Source of the DNA: Thermoplasmata archaeon
GTDB taxonomy: Archaea > Thermoplasmatota > Thermoplasmata > RBG-16-68-12 > JAJISG01
Direction: 5' to 3'
Assembly: GCA_046759185.1 (NCBI GenBank)
Contig: JBHIBO010000007.1
Span: forward strand, 3,898 to 67,897
DNA length: 64,000 nucleotides
Numbering within the stretch: position 1 is the stretch's first letter; each line of letters starts with the position of its first letter. Below the pieces are notes generated by a model. That model made no database searches. It was not told where the DNA came from and saw nothing but the letters and a program-made list of their open reading frames with translations. A program made the position numbers and the translations under genes. Of the stretch, positions 16,631 to 44,744 are shown piece by piece.

Positions 16631-17755
16631 CTAGAGCCCGATCATGCCTCCGACAGCGAGGCCCACGAGGTAGGTGGCGGCTGCTGCTCCCAATCCGATC
16701 AACACCATCTCCACCCCGCTCCGCAGGAAGGAATTGAGGGTGGAGAGCGAGCGCAGGACTCCAGTCAGAAACAGCGCCGCCGCAGCGAAAACAACGGCCG
16801 CGATAATCGCGGCGGACACAGAGAAGACCAGGAAGGGCAGAATTGGGATGAGGCCCGCCAGCACGAAGGCGAGTCCGGTGTACAGCGCCAGTCGCCCGGG
16901 ATTCTCGAAGCTCGCCGACCCGATTCCCCGTCCCTCGGCGAGCAGGGCCCGCAGGAACTCGTCCTCGTTCTCTGCCAGCCGATCGACGACGACCTCCGCC
17001 TCGGACCGGGACAGACCTTTGGTCTCATAGGCCTCCCGTAACTCCTCCTTCCGAGCCTCGGGGGCTACATCAACGGCCGCGCGCTGAAGGCTCACCTGCG
17101 AGGTGTACACGTCCTGCTCGGCCTTCACGGAAATGTATCCCGAGGCCGCCATGGAAGCCGCGCCTGCGATGAGGCCGGCGAGGCCCGCGATGACGACGAC
17201 CGGGGCTGAGCTGGTCGCGGCCGCGACGCCGGCGACCAGGGCGAGAATGCTTCCCAGCCCGTCGTTGGCGCCGAGAACCGTGGAGCGCAGGGTCCCTCCG
17301 GATCGCCCCGCCTCCCGCATCGACTCAAAGAGGTCAATCTCGTGGATGACCTCATCCGCCAGAACTTGATCGAAGGCCGCCTGTGCGTCGGGATCCTTCC
17401 AGCGGGACGCCTGGCCCCGATACCGCTTGATGCCGTTCACCTCAAACCGGTGGATTATCGGGAGCGCCCTTCCCAGGCCGAAGAGGTAGGCCAACCACAC
17501 GAGCAGCCGATGCTCCCACAGACGGACCTTGCGCGGCAACCTCCTCCGGAGTCCTCGGAGGAGGCCCTCCCAGATGTCTGCGTGTCTCTCCTCGTAGTCA
17601 GCGAGTTCTCTCAATTGGTCTCCGCGGGGGGATTTGCCTTCTCTCTCGGCGAGGGCGAGATACATCCATTGGGTAGACCTCTCATCGACCAGGTTCCGAT
17701 CCAGGTCTCTAAGATCCTCCCGCGTCCACTCGAACTCCTTTTTTCCTGTTGTCAT
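16631..17755 (-). CDS. Ferritin-like (erythrin) domain fused to VIT1/CCC1 iron transporter (MbfA-like)
   Basis: N-terminal di-iron-like helices (..ERSTQWMYLALAERE..YEERHADIWEGLL..HEIDLFE..), then ..LRSTVLGANDGLGSILALVAGVAAA.. and the VIT1 TM core. ATG 17755 is preferred over the Arg-rich start at 17800. Confidence 0.8.
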   Translation of the reverse strand: MTTGKKEFEWTREDLRDLDRNLVDERSTQWMYLALAEREGKSPRGDQLRELADYEERHADIWEGLLRGLRRRLPRKVRLWEHRLLVWLAYLFGLGRALPIIHRFEVNGIKRYRGQASRWKDPDAQAAFDQVLADEVIHEIDLFESMREAGRSGGTLRSTVLGANDGLGSILALVAGVAAATSSAPVVVIAGLAGLIAGAASMAASGYISVKAEQDVYTSQVSLQRAAVDVAPEARKEELREAYETKGLSRSEAEVVVDRLAENEDEFLRALLAEGRGIGSASFENPGRLALYTGLAFVLAGLIPILPFLVFSVSAAIIAAVVFAAAALFLTGVLRSLSTLNSFLRSGVEMVLIGLGAAAATYLVGLAVGGMIGL

Positions 17756-17844
17756 GCGACGGTGCGACCTACGGGGGCCATTGGCACGGCCAGATGGCAC
17801 GCACCTTTATGCGATTTCCCTCGGGAGGGACTCGAAGGGCCTGC

Positions 17845-18474
17845 TCAAAGGATGCCGCGCTCACTGAGCCACTGGTACACGTCATCGAAATCAGTGGCTT
17901 CGTAGTCCACCGCATCCCGGAGGCGACCCCCGGAGTTGATGGCGACGGAGACTCCCGCCTCCGTCAACAAGCCCAGGTCCATCACGCCATCGGCAAATGC
18001 GATGATGTCCTCACGAGCCACGCCTAGGGACTTGGCCATCAGGAGGGCCAAACCGCCCTTGGTGGAGGGGTTCACGCGAACGGCCACCCTTCCCGTAAAC
18101 GTGTTTTCGTCGTAGAGGAAGTGGTTGGACACAGTGAGGTCGGCCCCAAACTGCCGGCTCGCACTCGTCGCGATTTCGGAGGGACCACCCGTGATCAGAG
18201 CAACGGGGTGACCCCGACCTCGGATGGACTTGACGAAGCCGAGGGCCCCCGGGACGAGACGCAGGTCGTCAGCCAGGTTTTCGACGTCCTCTCGAGTGAC
18301 GCCAGCGAGAAAGGAAGCCCGTTCCCGAAAGCCCTCCTCCCAGTCGATCCTTCCCTCGACCCCTAGCTTCGTGATGCGTCCGACCTCCTCCTCCCGTCCC
18401 ACAAGCTTCGCCAGGTCGGGCAGGAGCTCGTTGTAGATGAGCGTGTTCTCTAGGTCGAAGGCGAAGAGCTTCAT
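17845..18474 (-). CDS. HAD-superfamily hydrolase, phosphoserine-phosphatase-like (divergent motifs)
   Basis: Colinear with archaeal SerB (..LITGG.., ..K.., ..DG..D..). However, motif I is FDLENT rather than DxDxT, and motif IV is ADGVMD. Confidence 0.7.
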   Translation of the reverse strand: MKLFAFDLENTLIYNELLPDLAKLVGREEEVGRITKLGVEGRIDWEEGFRERASFLAGVTREDVENLADDLRLVPGALGFVKSIRGRGHPVALITGGPSEIATSASRQFGADLTVSNHFLYDENTFTGRVAVRVNPSTKGGLALLMAKSLGVAREDIIAFADGVMDLGLLTEAGVSVAINSGGRLRDAVDYEATDFDDVYQWLSERGIL

Positions 18475-18567
18475 CGTGCCACCCGGGGCGACGAACCACG
18501 CGGATAAAACGTTGCGGGAGTCGACACATACACAAAGCTTGATACCCTACAAGCAATCGGGGGTCGC

Positions 18568-19164
18568 ATGGGTACGCTGCGTGATGCCAAGAACTATGGA
18601 GGCATTGGGGCGATTCTACTCCTGGTCGGCGTCTTCATCCCCCTCGTGGGCATTGCCATCTCCATCGTGGGCTTCATCCTCATGGTGATTGCAGTCAAGT
18701 ACATCTCGGAGGCCGTCGGCGATCGTTCGATCTACAACAACATGCTGTACTTCGTCATCATCGCCATCATCGGCTCCGTCGTCGCCTTCCTGTTTGTCTT
18801 TATTGCCTTGTTGCCCTTCTTGGCCCCCGGATTCGATCCCATAACGGGTCCCATCGATATCACGGACCCCGCCGCCATCTTCGCCATAGTGACCTTCCTT
18901 ATCGGACTCGCCGTCGCCTGGATCCTCTCCATCGTTGCCGCCGTGTTTCTCCGGAGTAGCTTTAACTCCATCTCGGCGCGTCTGGGCGTCGGCCTCTTCG
19001 GGACGTCCGCGCTCCTGTATCTCATCGGGGCGATTCTGATGATCGTGATTGTGGGATTCTTCCTCATCTTCGTCGCGGAGATTCTCATGATCGTGGCGTT
19101 CTTCTCCATCCCGGAGCAACAGCCCGCCCCTGCGATGGCCCAGCCCCCTCCGGCGGCACCGTAG
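18568..19164 (+). CDS. DUF996-family archaeal membrane protein
   Basis: ..LRDAKNYGGIGAILLLVGVFIPLVGIAISIVGFILMVIAVKYISEAVGDRSIYNN.. is the family-typical N-terminus. Multiple TM helices follow, with a Pro/Ala tail. Confidence 0.7.
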   Translation: MGTLRDAKNYGGIGAILLLVGVFIPLVGIAISIVGFILMVIAVKYISEAVGDRSIYNNMLYFVIIAIIGSVVAFLFVFIALLPFLAPGFDPITGPIDITDPAAIFAIVTFLIGLAVAWILSIVAAVFLRSSFNSISARLGVGLFGTSALLYLIGAILMIVIVGFFLIFVAEILMIVAFFSIPEQQPAPAMAQPPPAAP

Positions 19165-20900: not shown

Positions 20901-21092
20901 TCACCGCGTCAAGAAGAACGCCAGCACGAGAATGGCCATCGCGCCGATCCACAGGTAGATGAGCTGTCGGCGTTTCCGGCGCAGCACGCCCGTGTGCTTG
21001 TCCCGACACTCGTCCGAGCAGAAGTCCTCCGACGTCCGGACAGCCTTACCGCAGGACAGGCAGTGCTTGTGCTGGAGGAGCTTCTCGGCCAT
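20901..21092 (-). CDS. DUF2116-type zinc-ribbon protein with C-terminal TM helix
   Basis: HKHCLSCGKAV..FCSDECRDKH..RRKRRQ, then the hydrophobic LIYLWIGAMAILVLAFFL. It is the last gene of the co-directional surface-protein cluster. Confidence 0.65.
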   Translation of the reverse strand: MAEKLLQHKHCLSCGKAVRTSEDFCSDECRDKHTGVLRRKRRQLIYLWIGAMAILVLAFFLTR

Positions 21093-21140
21093 CCTCAGCG
21101 TAGAAAACTGCTTGATTGTATTAAAGGGTGAGAGGGTGCC

Positions 21141-22022
21141 CTACTCTTCCTGTTGACTCGCCCGCTCTAGGCTGAGTTCCGCCATCTTCAGGTTCCCCAT
21201 GAGCTCGTAGATCTTTGCCTTGAAGATCCAGAGACCCGGGTAGTCGGGTTTCACAGCCCCCACCTGATCTAGGAGATCGATGGCCTTCTCGTATTCCTTG
21301 CGCATGGCCAAGTAGGTCGCCTTCGCGAACAGCGCGTCGACGTCCTCGGCGTCCGCCGCCAGACGATTGTCGATCGATTTCATCCGCTTGTCGAAGATGG
21401 CTTGCCTCCGACGGACCTCCGAGGCCTCGACGCCGGTCTCCGGTTCGTCGAAATCGGCGAGCAGTCCCTCCAGCATCGAGGCCGCGACGTCCGTCGCCTC
21501 CGCCGGAGTAGGCTCGACTCCACCTACCACCTCGTCCAAAGCATTCAGGGCCTCGTCCAACGTCCCCAGGCCCTCGTCGAACGCCTCGGGTTCCGGCCCC
21601 CACATGGCCACCTCCGGAGGCGCGTGCACCGCGGGCTGCTGGACACGACGGCGCAGGAGATCGAGATGGTCCATTGGGACGGTGACGAGAAGGGCTCCCA
21701 GGACGATGAGCCGCGGAATGTTGATGGCGTCGAAGTAGTACGGCGAGGTCCGCAGTGCGAGAATCAGGCTAACCACCATGATAGTGGTAATGGCCACGCT
21801 GATCAGACGATCAGACTGGGGCCGCGAGTAGTGGAGGAAGGCGTTCCCTGCCGCGAGACCGGTTCCCACGAAGAGGAGTTGCAGCTCCGGAAATTGAAGC
21901 AGAAAGAGCGGCGTTAGCTCGAACGCCCAGCGCTCGAGGAGGCTGGTGGCGTTCCAGAGGATGAAGACGGTCTTGAAGGCCATGTAGAAAGCGAGGAAGG
22001 CGTGGATGCCTAGGGACACGGA
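21141..22022 (-). CDS. Polytopic membrane protein with acidic linker and C-terminal TPR domain (start uncertain)
   Basis: TM helices (..GIHAFLAFYMAFKTVFILW.., ..LFLLQFPELQLLFVGTGLAAG.., ..VAITTIMVVSLILAL.., ..LIVLGALLVTV..). An acidic segment follows, then TPR-like ..ALFAKATYLAMRKEYEKAIDLLDQVGAVKPDYPGLWIFKAKIYELMGNLKMAE. The track ORF start at 22319 would overlap the upstream gene; GTG 22022 or ATG 21986 are plausible. Confidence 0.6.
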   Translation of the reverse strand, partial: SVSLGIHAFLAFYMAFKTVFILWNATSLLERWAFELTPLFLLQFPELQLLFVGTGLAAGNAFLHYSRPQSDRLISVAITTIMVVSLILALRTSPYYFDAINIPRLIVLGALLVTVPMDHLDLLRRRVQQPAVHAPPEVAMWGPEPEAFDEGLGTLDEALNALDEVVGGVEPTPAEATDVAASMLEGLLADFDEPETGVEASEVRRRQAIFDKRMKSIDNRLAADAEDVDALFAKATYLAMRKEYEKAIDLLDQVGAVKPDYPGLWIFKAKIYELMGNLKMAELSLERASQQEE

Positions 22023-22083
22023 ACGCGGCCGGATGTAGAGAGAGACCCACTCCCTGAGAGTGGGGTTGCGATAATAGGACCCA

Positions 22084-22686
22084 TCAGCCGCCGTGGATCT
22101 CCCCCCTGATCCGTCTGCCCACAAGGACGACCGAGGCGGCGACGGCGAGGAGAAGGAGGAGCCAGGGCGGAAGGACGGTTGGCCCGCCAAGGGTCCCCGT
22201 GAAGTAGTCGAGTTGGGCCGTCGCATTGAGGCCATCCAGGTCGGTCGCCGTAATGCGGAGCCAACGTCCGACGAGGGGCTGGATCGCGAACGTGACACGA
22301 AGCTCGCTCCGCTCCGCAACGGTCTGCGGATTTTGATTTGCCGTAGCGAGGGACTGATCTCGGACGAGGATCTGGCCGAGGCTGTCCGTAAAGGTGGGCT
22401 CCCAGATTGCGCTCACGTTGGTCAGGTAGGTCTGGAGAACTACGTGTCCCACGGGGGCCTGGAGTTCGTCAAGGATTTCGAGATCCACACGCAGAATGTC
22501 CCCCCACGAGTTGTCATCGGAGACGATCACATCGACATGATTGACGCCGCTCTGGACTCCCAGGTCGATGCGCTGGAGTTCAGGGGCGACGTTGATAACA
22601 GTCACACCTTGCGTCTGGGCCCGCGCCATGGGGGAAAGCACAAGGAGGAAGAGCGCTAGCAGACACACGATGACAGGGGGCCCCAT
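22084..22686 (-). CDS. Secreted, C-terminally membrane-anchored protein, unknown family (cluster gene C)
   Basis: Sec-type signal MGPPVIVCLLALFLLVLSPMARAQ, a beta-rich ectodomain, and a C-terminal TM PPWLLLLLAVAASVVLVGRRIR. It starts 10 nt after the upstream stop. Confidence 0.7.
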   Translation of the reverse strand: MGPPVIVCLLALFLLVLSPMARAQTQGVTVINVAPELQRIDLGVQSGVNHVDVIVSDDNSWGDILRVDLEILDELQAPVGHVVLQTYLTNVSAIWEPTFTDSLGQILVRDQSLATANQNPQTVAERSELRVTFAIQPLVGRWLRITATDLDGLNATAQLDYFTGTLGGPTVLPPWLLLLLAVAASVVLVGRRIRGEIHGG

Positions 22687-22696
22687 GCGAAGGGCC

Positions 22697-24184
22697 CTAA
22701 GAGCCGCCTTTCTTCGTGCGGGTCCTCTCGTCACGTTTCTTGCCGCCTCCTTTGGGTTTCTTCTCTCCCCCGGCCTTCGAAGATCGCGGCGTCTTCTTCC
22801 CATTCTCCTGACTGCCTCGACTGGTCCTTTTCTTGCCGCGGGGTCGGGAGCCCCTGTGGGACTTTCGGGCTTCTCGAGGTGGTCGCGCAGGCGGCCCCCC
22901 GCGCAGGCGATCATAGCTGACGAAGGCGAGGACGGAAGCCGTCACCAGGGAAGCGAAGAGCCAGAGGTAAGAGGGAGGGAGGGGCCCGGGGGCCGATTTC
23001 GGTCCCACGATGATGCTTGTGCGGTAGAGCTGTATTTCACCGGTGCGTGGCAGCTCGAGGGAGAAGACGACCTCCGCCCACGTGGAGGGCGTGGTTGCCA
23101 TGACCTGGACTGTCAATTCCAGCTCAGCATCCGCCGGGGGTCTCAAGGTGGCCGGCAGGGTCAGGGGATTCTCGCCCTCGAACACACTCACGAGGCGTGC
23201 TTCCGTCACCCCGACGTTCACGGTCACGTCCTCATCCCCCGTCAGGAAGACATTCCAGATGACGATCGAACTGTAGTCGGCCCGAATGGCGTCAAGCGTC
23301 TGGAACACGACATTCCCGAAGGTCTGAACCGTGTATCCGGAGCGGCCTATGACGACCTTCAGATCGAAGACGCTCTCCAGGGCAGGCACGATCTGGGACG
23401 CCCCCTGGGAGGGAATGACGCCACTAACTTCGACGCGCGCAATCCCCTTCACCTCCACGATCTGCGGAGGGCGGGGATCGAGGTTCGCGCTGAGGAAGAA
23501 CTTCGTGTCCGAGTCGACGTGAACCACATCTGAGGGATTCACCAACTGGAGTCGGCTCTGCAACCGGTCAAAGGAGACGGAGAGTCGGAGGGGGACATTC
23601 CCGCTGTTGATGATTCGGAGGTACTGATTTCGGTCCTCGGAGAAGACTTCCACGCCCTGAAAGGGCTCGCCGCGAAGGTTGAAGTCTGCCGAAGACACGC
23701 CGTAAGCCATCCTCGGTGTCCGAACCTCGATCGTCTGATCCCCGAGAGGGGTCCCGTCTTGGATCACGACGATCGACCAAGCCCCCGCGACGGCCCCCGC
23801 GTCGATCCCCACATGGAAGATCACTTGGTTACCCGTCGATTGGCTGAGGTCCGGCTGGATGAAGGCCCCATATAGGAGGTCCGTCCAGTTATCGCTCTGC
23901 TCGTTGCGCTCCCATCGGTAGTGGCTGTCTATGCCATTGTTTGGGATTCCGACTGCGGATGCCTCGATGGAGAGCACATCCTGGATCGGAGACTCCAGGG
24001 TCAGCGAAAGGTCATGCCACACCCCTGCAATCCAGACGGGCTGGCCTTGCTCATTCTGCAGGGGCGTCTCCCCTGGCATCTGTAGGCCGACTTCAACCCC
24101 CTCGGACGCCGAGGCGGGAACCAGACCGAAGAGACTGAAGCCTACCACTAACGTCACTAAGGCCGCCATGGCCTCCTTGCGCAT
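22697..24184 (-). CDS. Secreted large ectodomain protein with C-terminal TM anchor and about 70-aa Lys/Arg-rich cytoplasmic tail (cluster gene B)
   Basis: Signal MRKEAMAALVTLVVGFSLFGLVPASASEG, a beta-rich body (..LRIINSGNVPLRLSVSF..) and TM YLWLFASLVTASVLAFVSY. The tail reads RLRGGPPARPPREARKSHRGSRPRGKKRTSRGSQENGKKTPRSSKAGGEKKPKGGGKKRDERTRTKKGGS. GGAGGA lies about 7 nt before ATG 24184. Confidence 0.75.
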   Translation of the reverse strand: MRKEAMAALVTLVVGFSLFGLVPASASEGVEVGLQMPGETPLQNEQGQPVWIAGVWHDLSLTLESPIQDVLSIEASAVGIPNNGIDSHYRWERNEQSDNWTDLLYGAFIQPDLSQSTGNQVIFHVGIDAGAVAGAWSIVVIQDGTPLGDQTIEVRTPRMAYGVSSADFNLRGEPFQGVEVFSEDRNQYLRIINSGNVPLRLSVSFDRLQSRLQLVNPSDVVHVDSDTKFFLSANLDPRPPQIVEVKGIARVEVSGVIPSQGASQIVPALESVFDLKVVIGRSGYTVQTFGNVVFQTLDAIRADYSSIVIWNVFLTGDEDVTVNVGVTEARLVSVFEGENPLTLPATLRPPADAELELTVQVMATTPSTWAEVVFSLELPRTGEIQLYRTSIIVGPKSAPGPLPPSYLWLFASLVTASVLAFVSYDRLRGGPPARPPREARKSHRGSRPRGKKRTSRGSQENGKKTPRSSKAGGEKKPKGGGKKRDERTRTKKGGS

Positions 24185-24242
24185 GTCCCATCCTCCACGA
24201 TGATCCACTTCCACAAAGAGTAAGAGTGGGGGGAGGGGGAGA

Positions 24243-25322
24243 CTACGGGGTCTCCACCCTCATGGTCAGGGTCGCAACGTAGCTTCCAGATGGGGTACCG
24301 AAGGGAACCGATACCCCGAACTGGACGCCCGTGGTCTCCGAATCTCCGACCGTGTCGTGAGCCTGGCTGGCGCCAGTACCCCAGATGAATTCCCGGTTGC
24401 CGATTCCCAGTCCACCGAAGGTGAGGTCCGAGGTGATGTCATCGCTCGGATCTCCGGCAGCGGTGATGTTGACATTTGCCGCAATCGGGATCTCGTCCCC
24501 GCCAGACGTCAGGTTGGTGTTGAACCACACGCTCATCCGATAGTCCCGGTTTGCCTGATGGGTGACCGTGACGGTGTTTGTGACGGCGTCGGAACCTGGG
24601 GATATTGTCCCCGCATCCCAGTCCGCCCCGATGGAGATGTTTGTGAACAAGAAGACGCCGAATTCGTGGTAGATGTTCGCCGAGTCTGCCTGGTTGATCA
24701 CGTCGGGGTTCCCAAAGTCCTTGGCTCTTACCTCAGAGTTCCAGGAGCTCAGGTCGTTGTAGGCCCCAGCGGCCTGGTTGATGGGATCATTAGCCTGCCG
24801 AATCTGGTTGTTGAGCGAGAAGGCCAGCTTGAAAGTGTAGTTCTCGTTGACGACGTTGGTGAACATCGAGCTGCTTCCGGAGTCGTAGGCGATGTTGCCT
24901 TCGGCGACGGACCATTCGCTCAGGGCCGGAGCATTCACGGGAGCGACGTTCGTGTAGTTGAGGTCTACCCGGTAGTTAGCCCCCGCGGCTGACTGCTGGT
25001 CGAAGGTTAACTCCGCGGAGCCTCCGTCGAACCAGATACGGATATTCGCCCACTGGAAGTCACCCCATCCATCAGGATCCATCAACGTGACGTTGAAGTA
25101 GTACGTGGTGTTGACGTCGAGTTGGGCGTGCATGAGGGAGCTGTCCGCGGCATCCGTGATGTCGTAGGCGGTAATTTCTGGCGGGTTGCTGGCGACTGTC
25201 GCCCCCAGGGTGTTGTCGGTGTCGTCGTCCGAGGCGATGTCAGCCGCCATCGCCTGCCCCAGACCAAGAAGCAGGCTGAAGGCCAGAAGACCAATCGTGA
25301 GGGCCTTGATCGTTGCTCTCAT
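24243..25322 (-). CDS. Secreted, probably N-glycosylated protein without anchor, unknown family (cluster gene A)
   Basis: Signal MRATIKALTIGLLAFSLLLGLGQAMA|AD. At least 7 N-x-S/T sequons (NTT, NVT, NYT x2, NIS, NLT, NIT). Asn/Thr/Asp-rich, with no TM helix. It ends ..GTPSGSYVATLTMRVETP. Confidence 0.8.
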   Translation of the reverse strand: MRATIKALTIGLLAFSLLLGLGQAMAADIASDDDTDNTLGATVASNPPEITAYDITDAADSSLMHAQLDVNTTYYFNVTLMDPDGWGDFQWANIRIWFDGGSAELTFDQQSAAGANYRVDLNYTNVAPVNAPALSEWSVAEGNIAYDSGSSSMFTNVVNENYTFKLAFSLNNQIRQANDPINQAAGAYNDLSSWNSEVRAKDFGNPDVINQADSANIYHEFGVFLFTNISIGADWDAGTISPGSDAVTNTVTVTHQANRDYRMSVWFNTNLTSGGDEIPIAANVNITAAGDPSDDITSDLTFGGLGIGNREFIWGTGASQAHDTVGDSETTGVQFGVSVPFGTPSGSYVATLTMRVETP

Positions 25323-25367
25323 TCCGGGTTCCTCCGAAGAGTTCGAGGCGATGGTCGGAAGTGTCTG

Positions 25368-25374
25368 TATTTAA
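25368..25374 (-). promoter_or_regulatory. TATA box for the surface-protein operon
   Basis: The minus strand reads GCTTAAATAC about 50 nt upstream of ATG 25322. GGAGGA lies 8-9 nt before the ATG. Confidence 0.45.
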
Positions 25375-25507: not shown

Positions 25508-25870
25508 CTATCGTGCCTCTGCCGGATTCAGGAAGAGGGGTTCCCAGTACTTCCAGCGGTTCCTCTTGGCAATCACCGATTCACAGGAGGGGCACACGAG
25601 GACGGTCACTTCCCCCTTCCGCCCCTCCTGCGCGATTGCCCCTAGACCCTCCAAGGAAACCTCTTTCCCCTCCTTCCGACACCAGGCGGACGTCACCCCC
25701 CGGCCGGGGAGGGGAATCCACGTCGACCCCGTCCACGTCGCGAGGGGGTCGGCCAGGCGCTCGTCCTCCGGGCAATAGACCTCCTTGGTCCGGATCGCCT
25801 CCCGCTCCACCCATCGCTTGGGCATGTCCCACAGATGGTGCGAGCCGTGTCGGTCGCAGGCGATATCCAT
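25508..25870 (-). CDS. Hypothetical Cys/Trp-rich protein
   Basis: 120-aa ORF with balanced composition (K, E, W, C) and CPSC / CDRHGSHH motifs. Competing overlapping ORFs are Arg/Pro/Gly-rich. I recognise no family. Confidence 0.3.
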   Translation of the reverse strand: MDIACDRHGSHHLWDMPKRWVEREAIRTKEVYCPEDERLADPLATWTGSTWIPLPGRGVTSAWCRKEGKEVSLEGLGAIAQEGRKGEVTVLVCPSCESVIAKRNRWKYWEPLFLNPAEAR

Positions 25871-41900: not shown

Positions 41901-44744
41901 ATGGCGAAGAAGACGGCCTCCCGTTCGAAGGGAAGCACGACCCGCAAGAAGTCTCCTCCTCGGAGCGGCAACAAGAGGCGCGGTAAGGGATCCATCAAGG
42001 TCAGCAAGAAGCAGGCCGAGCGCATGGCCCTCCTTCAGCTTCGGATCGGCCGGGCGGCGCACCTGTACAGCATGGCGGCGGCCTTTGCCCTGGCCGCCAG
42101 CGGGATCCTCCTCCTCCTCACCCAACCCGGTCGAGCCTTGGAAGGTCTGCCCATGGACACCCGGATGGTTCTCCCGTGGCTCATGCCCATCCTGGCGGGG
42201 GCCTTCACCGCGGCGTCGGCCCTTTACCTGAAGTGGAAGCCCTATGCCAGCGAGCGGTCCAGCCGCCACTTTGTCCTGACGGTCATCGCCCTGCTGGCCT
42301 CCGTGGCCACCCTCCTCCTCCTCGCCCTGCAGAACCTCCAGGGCTTCAACCCTCAGAGCCTGGTATGGGTGTACCCGAGCGCCTTGGCGGGCATCTCTCT
42401 CACCCTCATCTCTCTGGCCATGACGTGGCGTGGGTGGGGCCGTCGCAAGGTGCTGAGCATGCTGGCAGCGGCCTTCCCCATGGCCTTAATGGTCTACGGG
42501 TTCAACCCCATCTTCTCGACCGGCATCCCGCCGGACCTCCTCATCCTGACCTTCATGGGGAGCGCGGTGGCCGTGCAATTCAGCGGATCCATGCTCCACG
42601 TTACCTCCACATCAAACCGCGTCCAGACGCGTGAGATGATCCGGGTTAGCAACGACCGCCTGCAGATTCTTGGCGAGCAGCTGCAGTCCCAGAGGAAGGC
42701 GCTAGACTACAAGGAGAAGGCTCTGCGGACGAAGGAGGCAGACCTGGAGGTCAACGAGAAGGCCCTCAAGCAGCGTCTCCGCTCGGTCGACGACGCGCGA
42801 AAGGAACTGGAATCCCTTCAGACGAAGGTCGACCGAAGCACCGACGAGCTCCGCCAGTTGAAGAAGACCATCGGTGGGCGCGAGGCCGATGTGGCCACCC
42901 GAGAGCAGAAGCTCAGCCTGCAGCAGAAGGACCTGGGCAGCCGGGAAAGCGAGGTGAAGAAGACCCTGAAGCGACTCTCCAAGCAGGAGGGCCAGCTGGC
43001 CAACCAGGAACGGAGTCTGGAGAAGAGTCTCCGAGGACTCGAGGATCGAAAGGCGGACCTGGCAGACAGGGAGGTCGAACTCCGGGAGGCCGAACGTGCC
43101 CAGAAGGATCTCAGGAAGGAGTTGGACACCGGTCGCAAGCAGCTTATGGAGCGTGAGAGCGAGGTTCGCCTGAAGGAGAGTGCGCTGGAGATGAAGGGAG
43201 GCGGCGTGGGCCTCGCGGCGCGGGACGTAAGCATCCCGAAGCAGATCAAACGACTCGAAGCCCGTCTCCTGGACAAGGAGAAGGAACTGAGCCAACGGGA
43301 ACTCCAGCTGAAGCGGACCACCCAAGAGGTCGAGGCTTCCGCCCGGAAATCAGAGGACCGCGCCAAGAAGGCAGAGCAACGTCTCGCGAAGGTCGCCAGC
43401 CAGGGGAAGGACCTCACATCTCGGGAGAAGGAGATCGCCCAACGGGAGAGCGCCCTCCAGAGGCAGGAGCACGATCTCGAACGCCAGAGAGCCCTCATGG
43501 AGTCGTCCGTGGCGAGCATCCGGGAGAAGGAAGCGAAGTACGAGCAACTGTACAAGGAGGCCCACTCCCAGGCCTCCTCAGCGCGTCACACGGAGAAGGA
43601 GATCCAAGACGAGTTGGCGACGGTGCGGGAGCGGGAAGCGAAGTTGGAGAGAATGAAGGCCTCCCTCGAGGAGGAGCGAGATGAGATCAACGCGATGCTC
43701 CAGGATCTGCTCCGCAAGGAGAAAGAGGTCGAGGCGCGCGAATCCGAAACCAAGCTCCGCATCCTGGAGGCGAAGAAGAAGATTCGCACCATGCCGGTCT
43801 CCGGCGATGCCCGGGCCCTGATGGAGCGGGAAAAGGCCCTCGAGCTGAGGGAGAAGAGACTGACGGACAAGGAGCTAGAGGTGAAGTCCCGTCTGTACGA
43901 GAAAGCGAAGGCGTTGAAGGAGAAGGAAACGGCCATCAAGAAGGGGTTGACGATAGTGGAGGTCGATGAGGTGGACGAACCCATGGAGCAGGCAGCATCG
44001 ACGGGCACCCGGGGGAGTTCCGGAATTCGTCGACTCGACGACCTCCTGATGGGCGGCATTCCCATCGGCTCACAGATCCTCTACGTGGGGCCCGCCTTTG
44101 TCGGCAAGGAGGTCGCGATTCTCAATTTCATCGCAGAGGGGCTCCGGAGCGGGGTTCCCTGCGTCTTCATCACGACTTCCCGTCCCCCCGACGAGGTGGC
44201 GAAGGACATGGGCCCCATCCTACCCTCGTTCATGGAGTACGAACAGGTGGGCCTCATCCGGTGGATCGACGGCTCCACGCCCTTGGCAGACCCCAAGAAG
44301 AAGACGCCCATCGTCGAAGGGAACACCTACGTCGTTGCTGGCGCCGGCGACTACGAGGGCATCCTCGGGGCCATGAACCTAATCGTAGAGGAGCTGAGCA
44401 AGGAGGACTATCCCTACTTCAAACTGGCCTACATGACCCTCTCCACCTCCCTGACCCAAGGGAGCGAGAAGGAGGCCATGAGCTACGTCCAGCGCTTCGT
44501 GAATGGCATGCGCCAGATGGACTCCATTGGCATCTACGCGGTGGAGGGCGGGATGCACGAGAAGCAACAGATCGAGGCCCTAGAGCACCAGATGGAGGGG
44601 ACCATCCACTTCCGGAGCGAGCGTCAGAAGAGCCAGCTCAAGGTCGCCGGTATCGCCGACACTCAGACCCGGGATTGGGTGGAGTATAAGCATGATAGCC
44701 GGACCCTGCGCCTCGGGGCGTTTCAGCTCGAGCGAATCCGGTGA
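41901..44744 (+). CDS. Membrane protein: basic N-tail, about 6 TM helices, long repetitive coiled coil, C-terminal KaiC/RecA-like domain with degenerate Walker motifs
   Basis: N-terminus MAKKTASRSKGSTTRKKSPPRSGNKRRGKG... Six hydrophobic helices up to about residue 245, then an uninterrupted heptad-rich K/E/R/L segment of about 470 aa. The C-terminus reads ..GIRRLDDLLMGGIPIGSQILYVGPAFVGKEVAILNFIAEGLRSGVPCVFITT.. (KaiC/RadA-like). Confidence 0.85.
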   Translation: MAKKTASRSKGSTTRKKSPPRSGNKRRGKGSIKVSKKQAERMALLQLRIGRAAHLYSMAAAFALAASGILLLLTQPGRALEGLPMDTRMVLPWLMPILAGAFTAASALYLKWKPYASERSSRHFVLTVIALLASVATLLLLALQNLQGFNPQSLVWVYPSALAGISLTLISLAMTWRGWGRRKVLSMLAAAFPMALMVYGFNPIFSTGIPPDLLILTFMGSAVAVQFSGSMLHVTSTSNRVQTREMIRVSNDRLQILGEQLQSQRKALDYKEKALRTKEADLEVNEKALKQRLRSVDDARKELESLQTKVDRSTDELRQLKKTIGGREADVATREQKLSLQQKDLGSRESEVKKTLKRLSKQEGQLANQERSLEKSLRGLEDRKADLADREVELREAERAQKDLRKELDTGRKQLMERESEVRLKESALEMKGGGVGLAARDVSIPKQIKRLEARLLDKEKELSQRELQLKRTTQEVEASARKSEDRAKKAEQRLAKVASQGKDLTSREKEIAQRESALQRQEHDLERQRALMESSVASIREKEAKYEQLYKEAHSQASSARHTEKEIQDELATVREREAKLERMKASLEEERDEINAMLQDLLRKEKEVEARESETKLRILEAKKKIRTMPVSGDARALMEREKALELREKRLTDKELEVKSRLYEKAKALKEKETAIKKGLTIVEVDEVDEPMEQAASTGTRGSSGIRRLDDLLMGGIPIGSQILYVGPAFVGKEVAILNFIAEGLRSGVPCVFITTSRPPDEVAKDMGPILPSFMEYEQVGLIRWIDGSTPLADPKKKTPIVEGNTYVVAGAGDYEGILGAMNLIVEELSKEDYPYFKLAYMTLSTSLTQGSEKEAMSYVQRFVNGMRQMDSIGIYAVEGGMHEKQQIEALEHQMEGTIHFRSERQKSQLKVAGIADTQTRDWVEYKHDSRTLRLGAFQLERIR

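Follow-up and report, generated by a model that had tools for sequence, protein, structure and literature searches.

Four adjoining genes on the minus strand of a 64-kb window (the whole stretch of contig JBHIBO010000007.1 of a Thermoplasmata archaeon that was analysed, 64,000 nucleotides) are found together, in the same order, across related genomes. They are called A, B, C and D here, and on computational evidence a modular cell-surface docking and display complex is proposed for their products, with a probability of about 0.4. A encodes a secreted protein whose two-domain body, the A module, recurs at the C-terminus of large proteins of up to 4,736 residues. B encodes a membrane-anchored string of beta-sandwich domains, the first of which (D1) has homologs at the N-terminus of nine of these large proteins. 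C encodes a small anchored protein that shares a domain with A, and D encodes a four-pass membrane protein. With a fifth gene, E, they make up the five open reading frames (ORFs) of the locus at positions 20901-25374 (Table 1).

Related loci, numbered with the prefix L, were gathered by exact-protein look-ups and collection scans. A stand-alone A gene was followed by B in 38 of the 38 fetched loci with room for it, and C and D came next in all 26 loci with sufficient sequence. The order A-B-C-D holds down to 27-34% identity in A and amid unrelated flanking genes, for example on the 529-kb contig of L017. Gene E was sought in the 26 related A-B-C-D loci and was present in none, a gene for a TrkA-type channel or other genes being there instead. 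The TTTAATA element 27 nt before E indicates that E is probably driven by a separate promoter of its own; the pattern TTWAATA has two matches in the whole 64 kb, one before A and one before E, and AT-only hexamers are scarce in the window (n = 36). On its absence from all A-B-C-D relatives and its own TATA-like box, E was ruled out as a fifth component, and the conserved unit, judged by synteny and promoter-like sequence, is the four genes A-B-C-D with E as an adjoining neighbour outside the cassette.

A first-pass annotation of this DNA, made from the letters alone, had placed all five genes behind one TATA box and Shine-Dalgarno sequence. The five minus-strand ORFs were confirmed, as were TTAAATA and GGAGG before A, but the single unit gave way at E, which has its own box; likewise conserved gene order, proposed as a test, was found to be strong for A-B-C-D, whereas the DUF2116 gene never travels along. 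The protein descriptions held up against the analyses given below for each gene: A with a Sec signal, no anchor and at least seven sequons; B with a signal, a beta-rich ectodomain, a C-terminal transmembrane segment and a polybasic tail; C with a signal, an ectodomain and a C-terminal transmembrane segment; D polytopic with an acidic linker and a TPR; and E a DUF2116 protein (PF09889, E 3.1e-13, 49.9 bits against a Pfam cutoff of 26.8). A to C matched nothing in Pfam, NCBIfam or PDB sequences, in keeping with the statement that they belong to no recognisable family. Neither a type IV pilin signal nor a sortase tag was found in the unit, nor an ATPase or a glycosyltransferase. The Foldseek comparisons that had been suggested returned only generic tandem immunoglobulin (Ig) folds with TM-scores of at most 0.3.

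On the sequences gathered, the cassette is confined to some lineages of Thermoplasmatota. Its carriers are metagenome-assembled genomes labelled Thermoplasmata, Thermoplasmatota, 'Methanomassiliicoccales' or 'Methanobacteriota', and close homologs of A form about 57 clusters at 90% identity among 5.8 billion. Identity among close relatives is 68% for A compared with 45-50% for B, C and D. In one locus from an AT-rich Thermoplasmatota (L044:1-25934, JGI 3300027896), a giant gene, A, a second A gene (A'), B, C and a variant of D lie within a cluster of archaellum genes that has three genes of the Flagellin_arch type, together with FlaC_arch, Arch_fla_DE and a PAS sensor. Directly upstream of A, three loci (L001:5467-7791, L002:5506-7827 and L004:5460-7778) encode a protein of some 772 residues that has a signal, repeats resembling a beta-propeller on visual inspection, a C-terminal transmembrane segment and no Pfam match; this protein is absent from the window, L003 and L017. 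To judge by gene content, large surface proteins of varying kind seem to occupy the position upstream of A.

The N-terminus of A is hydrophobic and of the Sec type, with a Sec/signal peptidase I (SPI)-type signal at residues 1-26, and no further hydrophobic segment follows. The mature protein has a mass of about 35.6 kDa and an isoelectric point (pI) of 4.05, is Cys-free and ends in GSYVATLTMRVETP. An AlphaFold2 (AF2) model made with 56 homologs in the alignment (predicted local distance difference test, pLDDT, 93.3; predicted template modelling score, pTM, 0.81) consists of two complete beta-sandwiches, and the A module was set at residues ~45-359. The N-terminal peptide of some 20 residues is unstructured in the monomer model (pLDDT 63-75). 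In stand-alone A proteins the mature N-terminal peptide is conserved as A-x-A-x-D-[VI]..S..D..T[LI].V.V, and its Asp, D28, is present in at least 90% of 35 diverse family members. Foldseek searches of the PDB returned tandem-Ig adhesins and pilins, namely the C-terminal domains of AgI/II, GBS80, SdrG/ClfB, CsuE and FimH, at probabilities of 0.97-1.0, TM-scores of at most 0.3 and 8-12% identity, a generic likeness of fold. Sequence and profile searches of the PDB gave no matches for A; a Pfam/NCBIfam scan at E<=1 gave only sub-threshold NEW3/Ig-like noise at the last strands, and a Pfam scan of the 35 diverse members at E<=0.01 matched no family. By hhalign no relation was found between A and B. 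A offers no conserved Lys for isopeptide chemistry, and the A family has no conserved Lys/Asn triad.

A carries seven N-X-S/T sequons. Composition-matched shuffles gave 5.2 +/- 2.0, and a claim of enrichment was dropped because seven is not above the expectation for its N/S/T-rich composition. The sequons at N77, N122, N161 and N285 are each kept in more than 84% of the 56 homologs, and A is probably glycosylated at its conserved sites. The median number of sequons per homolog is 8 for A and 1 for B, which fits an outermost A and a shielded B. Stand-alone A genes are duplicated in tandem ahead of B in three loci (L008:3-848 and 958-2025; L015:147-1112 and 1286-2323; L044:16082-17203 and 17435-18559).

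An exhaustive search with an A-family profile yielded 277 representatives at E<=1e-3; the best 150 divide roughly evenly into stand-alone proteins (330-390 residues) and large ones (450-4,736 residues). Among 72 representative proteins longer than 450 residues, 56 have a complete A module whose end is no more than 15 residues from the C-terminus. Signals or anchors are found at the N-termini of these giants, some of which contain Laminin_G_3, DUF2341 or DUF11 domains. In five loci (L012, L014, L022, L023 and L044) a giant is encoded immediately upstream of A-B. Seven GC-rich giants (P0093, P0096, P0097, P0100, P0162, P0168 and P0180) share an N-terminal motif just past the signal, roughly Q.Q.DP.AC.A.G.NW..C..AF..D..YA with two Cys, which is unmatched in Pfam and may represent a further domain yet to be characterised.

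The architecture of B runs from a signal through four beta-sandwich domains (D1 at residues ~28-157) and a transmembrane segment at residues 404-424 to a polybasic cytoplasmic tail of 71 residues with a pI of 12. In the AF2 model the string of sandwiches spans residues 30-393, mostly at pLDDT above 83, and is followed directly by the transmembrane helix and a disordered tail. Its Foldseek matches in the PDB, all at TM-scores of 0.3 or less, were ASH/PapD-like Ig arrays of hydin-type ciliary proteins, CfaB and SbsB; sequence and profile searches of the PDB returned low-complexity or designed-protein noise only. B together with 32 homologs matched no family in Pfam, and B matched none in NCBIfam. 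In L007:9055-10719 a single ORF matches B (profile positions 1-438) and then only the transmembrane and tail part of C (151-206), and would be either a B-C fusion without the C ectodomain or an artefact of assembly or frameshift.

D1 of B was found again in nine giants from AT-rich Thermoplasmatota that bear an N-terminal D1 homolog and a C-terminal A module (hmmsearch 1e-13 to 1e-6; hhalign 97.8%, E 9.3e-13, over B residues 45-154). Behind the D1-like domain lie two hydrophobic segments with a charged stretch of about 110 residues between them, so arranged that the nine look like a small B-like anchor fused to A-module cargo, a Rosetta-stone link.

C has a signal, an ectodomain, a C-terminal transmembrane segment and a tail that is short and basic. 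A paralogue of the N-domain of A (hhalign probability 92%, E 5.7e-7) opens the ectodomain, which contains the invariant motifs GVTVINV.P and SD.NSW.DI. No family in Pfam or NCBIfam was matched at E<=1, and hhalign found no relation to B. A free donor strand at GVTVINV was ruled out: orthologs carry a variable spacer ahead of it, and it is therefore the first strand of the domain.

The start of D is most likely TTG 22121, overlapping C as in relatives; the public gene call is 292 residues long, and the earlier start was set because conserved ortholog residues lie upstream of the first in-frame GTG. D comprises four transmembrane segments, an acidic linker with a pI of about 4 and a C-terminal TPR (~nt 21338-21150). 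TPR_14 scored 25.0 bits against a gathering cutoff of 23.5 (E 2.4e-5), the remaining TPR models fell below cutoff, and many homologs are annotated with TPR. Conserved residues are concentrated in two short loops with the motifs ERW.FELTP and SPYYFD..N..R. The positive-inside rule, together with the NAT sequon conserved in loop 1, predicts both loops to be outside the cell, which would leave the acidic linker and the TPR in the cytoplasm. In L044 the four-TM core is kept (E 9.5e-16), the cytoplasmic part is a coiled coil with PAS_9 and not TPR, and the tail of B is 2 residues only. In 17 distinct loci a polybasic B tail of 55-80 residues (net +6 to +21) occurs with an acidic D linker (net -4 to -22), a co-occurrence that suggests pairing of tail and linker by charge. 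The idea that D is a CPBP- or sortase-type membrane enzyme was considered and rejected, with no motif or family support in Pfam, NCBIfam or the alignment.

In the proposed docking complex, the A module would dock onto D1, the tip of the membrane-anchored protein B, and a second tether or receptor in the membrane, A-like in kind, would be provided by C. Free A and giant lectin-domain cargo ending in an A module would thereby be held on the cell surface, and D would organise the receptors in the membrane and couple them to cytoplasmic partners, perhaps through the polybasic tail of B paired with the acidic linker of D. The conserved gene order, the C-terminal position of the A modules, the giants upstream of A, the D1 fusions, the homology between C and A, the richness of A in sequons compared with B and the opposite charges of B tail and D linker were counted in favour; recurrence of the A module, fusion to D1 and paralogy of C argue for docking and display at least as strongly as for a lattice or filament. 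Several observations weigh on the other side. Binding of A to B D1, binding of A to C and binding of the B tail to D are all inferred steps, and a fusion signifies a functional link between D1 and the A module, not direct binding. The co-variation of tail and linker amounts to essentially one independent contrast, and L007 misfits the pattern with a short B tail and yet an acidic D. Other A-module giants are encoded away from any cassette (L011, L013 and L031), and the higher conservation of A would also be in keeping with a subunit that assembles itself into a lattice or fibre.

The closest organisational counterpart is found in the WxL/Csc clusters of Lactobacillales and Bacillales, which encode a small and a large WxL protein, a WxLIP (DUF916-DUF3324-TM) and a small anchored protein (PMC10599100). 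Here too, a secreted protein consisting of the module alone stands with large proteins carrying the same C-terminal module after lectin-like or binding domains, next to an adjoining tandem-Ig protein with a C-terminal transmembrane segment and a small anchored protein, and in both the shared module is thought to retain proteins on the cell. This set-up of small module, large module and membrane-anchored Ig tandem was counted for the docking complex. The organisation is shared without homology. Neither A nor B matches Pfam WxL (PF13731), DUF916 or DUF3324 at E<=1, and A has no W-x-L motif, of which the WxL domain carries two; the A module has about 310 residues in two domains as against 160-190 for WxL, C is held by a transmembrane segment and not by LPXTG, and the cassette has the additional four-pass TPR/PAS protein D. 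The archaeal host has no peptidoglycan, and the binding target must therefore differ from that of WxL.

Cohesin-dockerin systems offer a similar parallel in a C-terminal module common to otherwise unrelated secreted proteins and a beta-sandwich receptor on an anchored scaffold; some proteins, moreover, bear both module types, which would permit chaining. The dockerin, however, is a small Ca-binding helical module whereas A is a two-domain beta-sandwich, and no enzymes were identified among the A-module cargo, so that the analogy extends to the logic alone. Every sequence-based comparison with the known systems failed to place the cassette among them, and the likeness is therefore one of analogy, not homology: the working principle may be that of WxL clusters and cohesin-dockerin, reached by unrelated proteins. 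As a principle, a shared C-terminal module with a membrane-anchored Ig partner would have bacterial precedents; the families themselves appear to be new. It is improbable, though conceivable, that the chaining goes further and that giants with a B-D1 head and an A tail join head-to-tail into an extended and glycosylated surface matrix of Thermoplasmatota, a phylum in which many members lack a rigid wall. Such a matrix would be comparable to both cohesin-dockerin and integrin-type adhesion, and the B tail and the D linker with its TPR or PAS would couple it to partners in the cytoplasm.

A two-component S-layer would explain the same genes differently, with glycosylated A as a two-dimensional canopy, B (and C) as SlaB-like stalks and the giants co-integrated as decorations. 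SlaB has several beta-sandwich domains and a C-terminal transmembrane segment, and B resembles it in this gross architecture, with SbsB among its fold matches; as in SlaA/SlaB, a free, predicted glycosylated outer protein is encoded beside it. A is acidic, Cys-free and the best conserved of the four proteins among close relatives, with conserved sequons and a consensus TATA box. At about 36 kDa, though, A is small for an S-layer protein, being about a quarter of the size of SlaA. The model of B has no coiled-coil stalk, its last sandwich running straight into the transmembrane helix, and neither A nor B showed a sequence or specific fold match to SlaA, SlaB or any other S-layer protein in Pfam or in sequence and profile searches of the PDB. 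C and D are extra genes in comparison with SlaA/SlaB. A lattice would leave D, polytopic with TPR or PAS, unexplained, and fits poorly with the patchy distribution over some Thermoplasmatota lineages and with tandem A copies. Accessory proteins co-expressed with archaeal S-layers can anchor them (bioRxiv 10.1101/2024.05.28.596244), a precedent that speaks for this explanation; on balance it is held to be rather unlikely. The explanation by strand exchange fares a little worse and must be called improbable: A would polymerise into a fibre without type IV machinery, the giants would be tip adhesins, C would be basal and B a PapD-like chaperone or platform. The conserved, unstructured mature N-terminal peptide of stand-alone A, with its near-invariant Asp, recalls the subunit of Sulfolobus threads, which has an SPI-cleaved 'DV' N-terminus and a donor strand (PMC9715654). 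The threads (Saci_0406) also have a minor paralogue in the cluster and co-encoded membrane proteins of unknown role (PMC9715654), and A resembles them as a Sec/SPI-exported, probably glycosylated beta-sandwich subunit with a conserved acidic mature N-terminus, a paralogue and membrane proteins alongside. PapD/ASH-like Ig domains in B, its match to the CfaB pilin, the matches of A to FimH and CsuE, and the C-terminal module of the giants, which parallels two-domain tip adhesins, likewise recall chaperone-usher fibres. Against this, the A monomer is two-domain, with two full sandwiches at pLDDT above 90 and no obvious missing strand (judged by secondary structure only), the conserved Asp of A is at +2 of the A-x-A site and not the first mature residue as in threads, and the segment of C homologous to the first strand of A follows a variable spacer and is not a free N-terminus. 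No homology to thread or chaperone-usher proteins was detected. FimH and CsuE are generic tandem-Ig matches (TM 0.28-0.30), no usher-like gene was found among the window ORFs or in Pfam scans, and isopeptide linkage would find no conserved Lys.

Thread, TasA/ABP and cannula subunits were not among the 50 best PDB fold matches of A and gave no sequence hits; A had no Pfam match to TasA/Peptidase_M73. AgI/II, MSCRAMMs and Gram-positive pilins, tandem beta-sandwich surface proteins that include the best Foldseek matches of A, differ in that the TM-scores are 0.2-0.3 and the A family has no LPXTG, no isopeptide triad and no sequence homology to them. The signals of A, B and C are ordinary Sec-type sequences ending in A-x-A-like sites; no class III signal and no Flagellin_arch-type or pilin Pfam match was found in A-C, and a PGF-CTERM/archaeosortase signal had no NCBIfam or Pfam match, nor a PGF motif in the transmembrane regions of B and C. 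For the resemblance to SlaA/SlaB S-layers, threads or TasA-like fibres drawn in the first-pass annotation no specific evidence was found, with no sequence hits, none of these proteins among the 50 best PDB fold matches listed and complete sandwiches in the AF2 monomer. A role in sensing or adhesion signalling, in which Ig-like ectodomains bind a ligand or surface and D relays the signal through TPR or PAS, for example to control motility, is very doubtful. It draws on the retention of the four-TM core of D across a change of cytoplasmic domain from TPR to coiled coil and PAS_9, on conserved motifs of D in loops predicted to lie outside, and on the archaellum cluster of L044, where the cassette is beside a PAS sensor. 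That link is a single case (n = 1), no output domain such as a kinase or methyl-accepting chemotaxis protein (MCP) was found, the neighbours in the window and other loci are unrelated metabolic genes, and the dozens of giants ending in an A module would go unexplained.

Table 1. Genes and promoter-like elements of the A-E locus (positions in the window)
Feature	Position	Strand	Basis
TTAAATA, TATA-like, upstream of A; putative promoter of A-B-C-D	25368..25374	-	sequence
GGAGG, Shine-Dalgarno-like, 8 nt ahead of the ATG of A	25331..25335	-	sequence
Gene A, 359 aa, secreted, two beta-sandwich domains	24243..25322	-	ORF, hydropathy, AF2
Gene B, 495 aa, type I membrane protein	22697..24184	-	ORF, hydropathy, AF2
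Gene C, 200 aa, type I membrane protein	22084..22686	-	ORF, hydropathy
Gene D, ~326 aa, start uncertain	21141..22121	-	ORF, ortholog alignment, Pfam
TTTAATA, second TATA-like box, 27 nt upstream of the ATG of E	21119..21125	-	sequence
Gene E, 63 aa, DUF2116 zinc-ribbon/TM protein	20901..21092	-	Pfam match

The neighbours of the locus in the window are ordinary metabolic genes, encoding a pirin, a molybdopterin oxidoreductase, an aminotransferase, enzymes related to the tricarboxylic acid cycle and an ABC transporter. Paralogues of A-D were searched for across the window and none was found. On the same strand, 186 nt upstream of A, lies an ORF of 120 residues (25508-25870, -) that has no Pfam match and whose two CxxC-like pairs may form a zinc ribbon; ORFs with 59-64% identity to it, either lacking annotation or called differently, occur in L001, L004, L006 and L007 at varying distances of 4-7 kb from the cassette. 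About 1.7 kb past E, beyond two intervening genes, a polytopic DUF996 membrane protein with a proline/alanine-rich tail ending EQQPAPAMAQPPPAAP is encoded at 18568-19164 (+) and appears unrelated to the cassette. A protein of 947 residues at 41901-44744 (+) has a KaiC-like ATPase domain confined to residues 707-912 behind a long N-terminal part without Pfam match, in a region of unusually high AT skew (0.24).

To the little that is known of how Thermoplasmatota construct and adorn their cell surface, the cassette adds four families without a Pfam or NCBIfam model, namely the A module, B, C and the membrane core of D; no earlier description of the A-D families turned up in Pfam, NCBIfam and the PDB, or in the searchable literature, which was covered for S-layers of Methanomassiliicoccales/Thermoplasmatota and for DUF2341 with archaea. 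Should A prove to be the subunit of an S-layer or fibre instead, the envelope component so far missing from a lineage widespread in soil and sediment would be identified, and a head-to-tail matrix, if true, would add a new class to the archaeal machineries of envelope and adhesion, one joining outside to inside. If the A module is a docking module, it would give a rule for predicting which proteins are displayed on uncultured archaea, with D1 of B as the candidate receptor, and would be an independent archaeal counterpart to the bacterial WxL, SLH, CWB2 and cohesin-dockerin systems.

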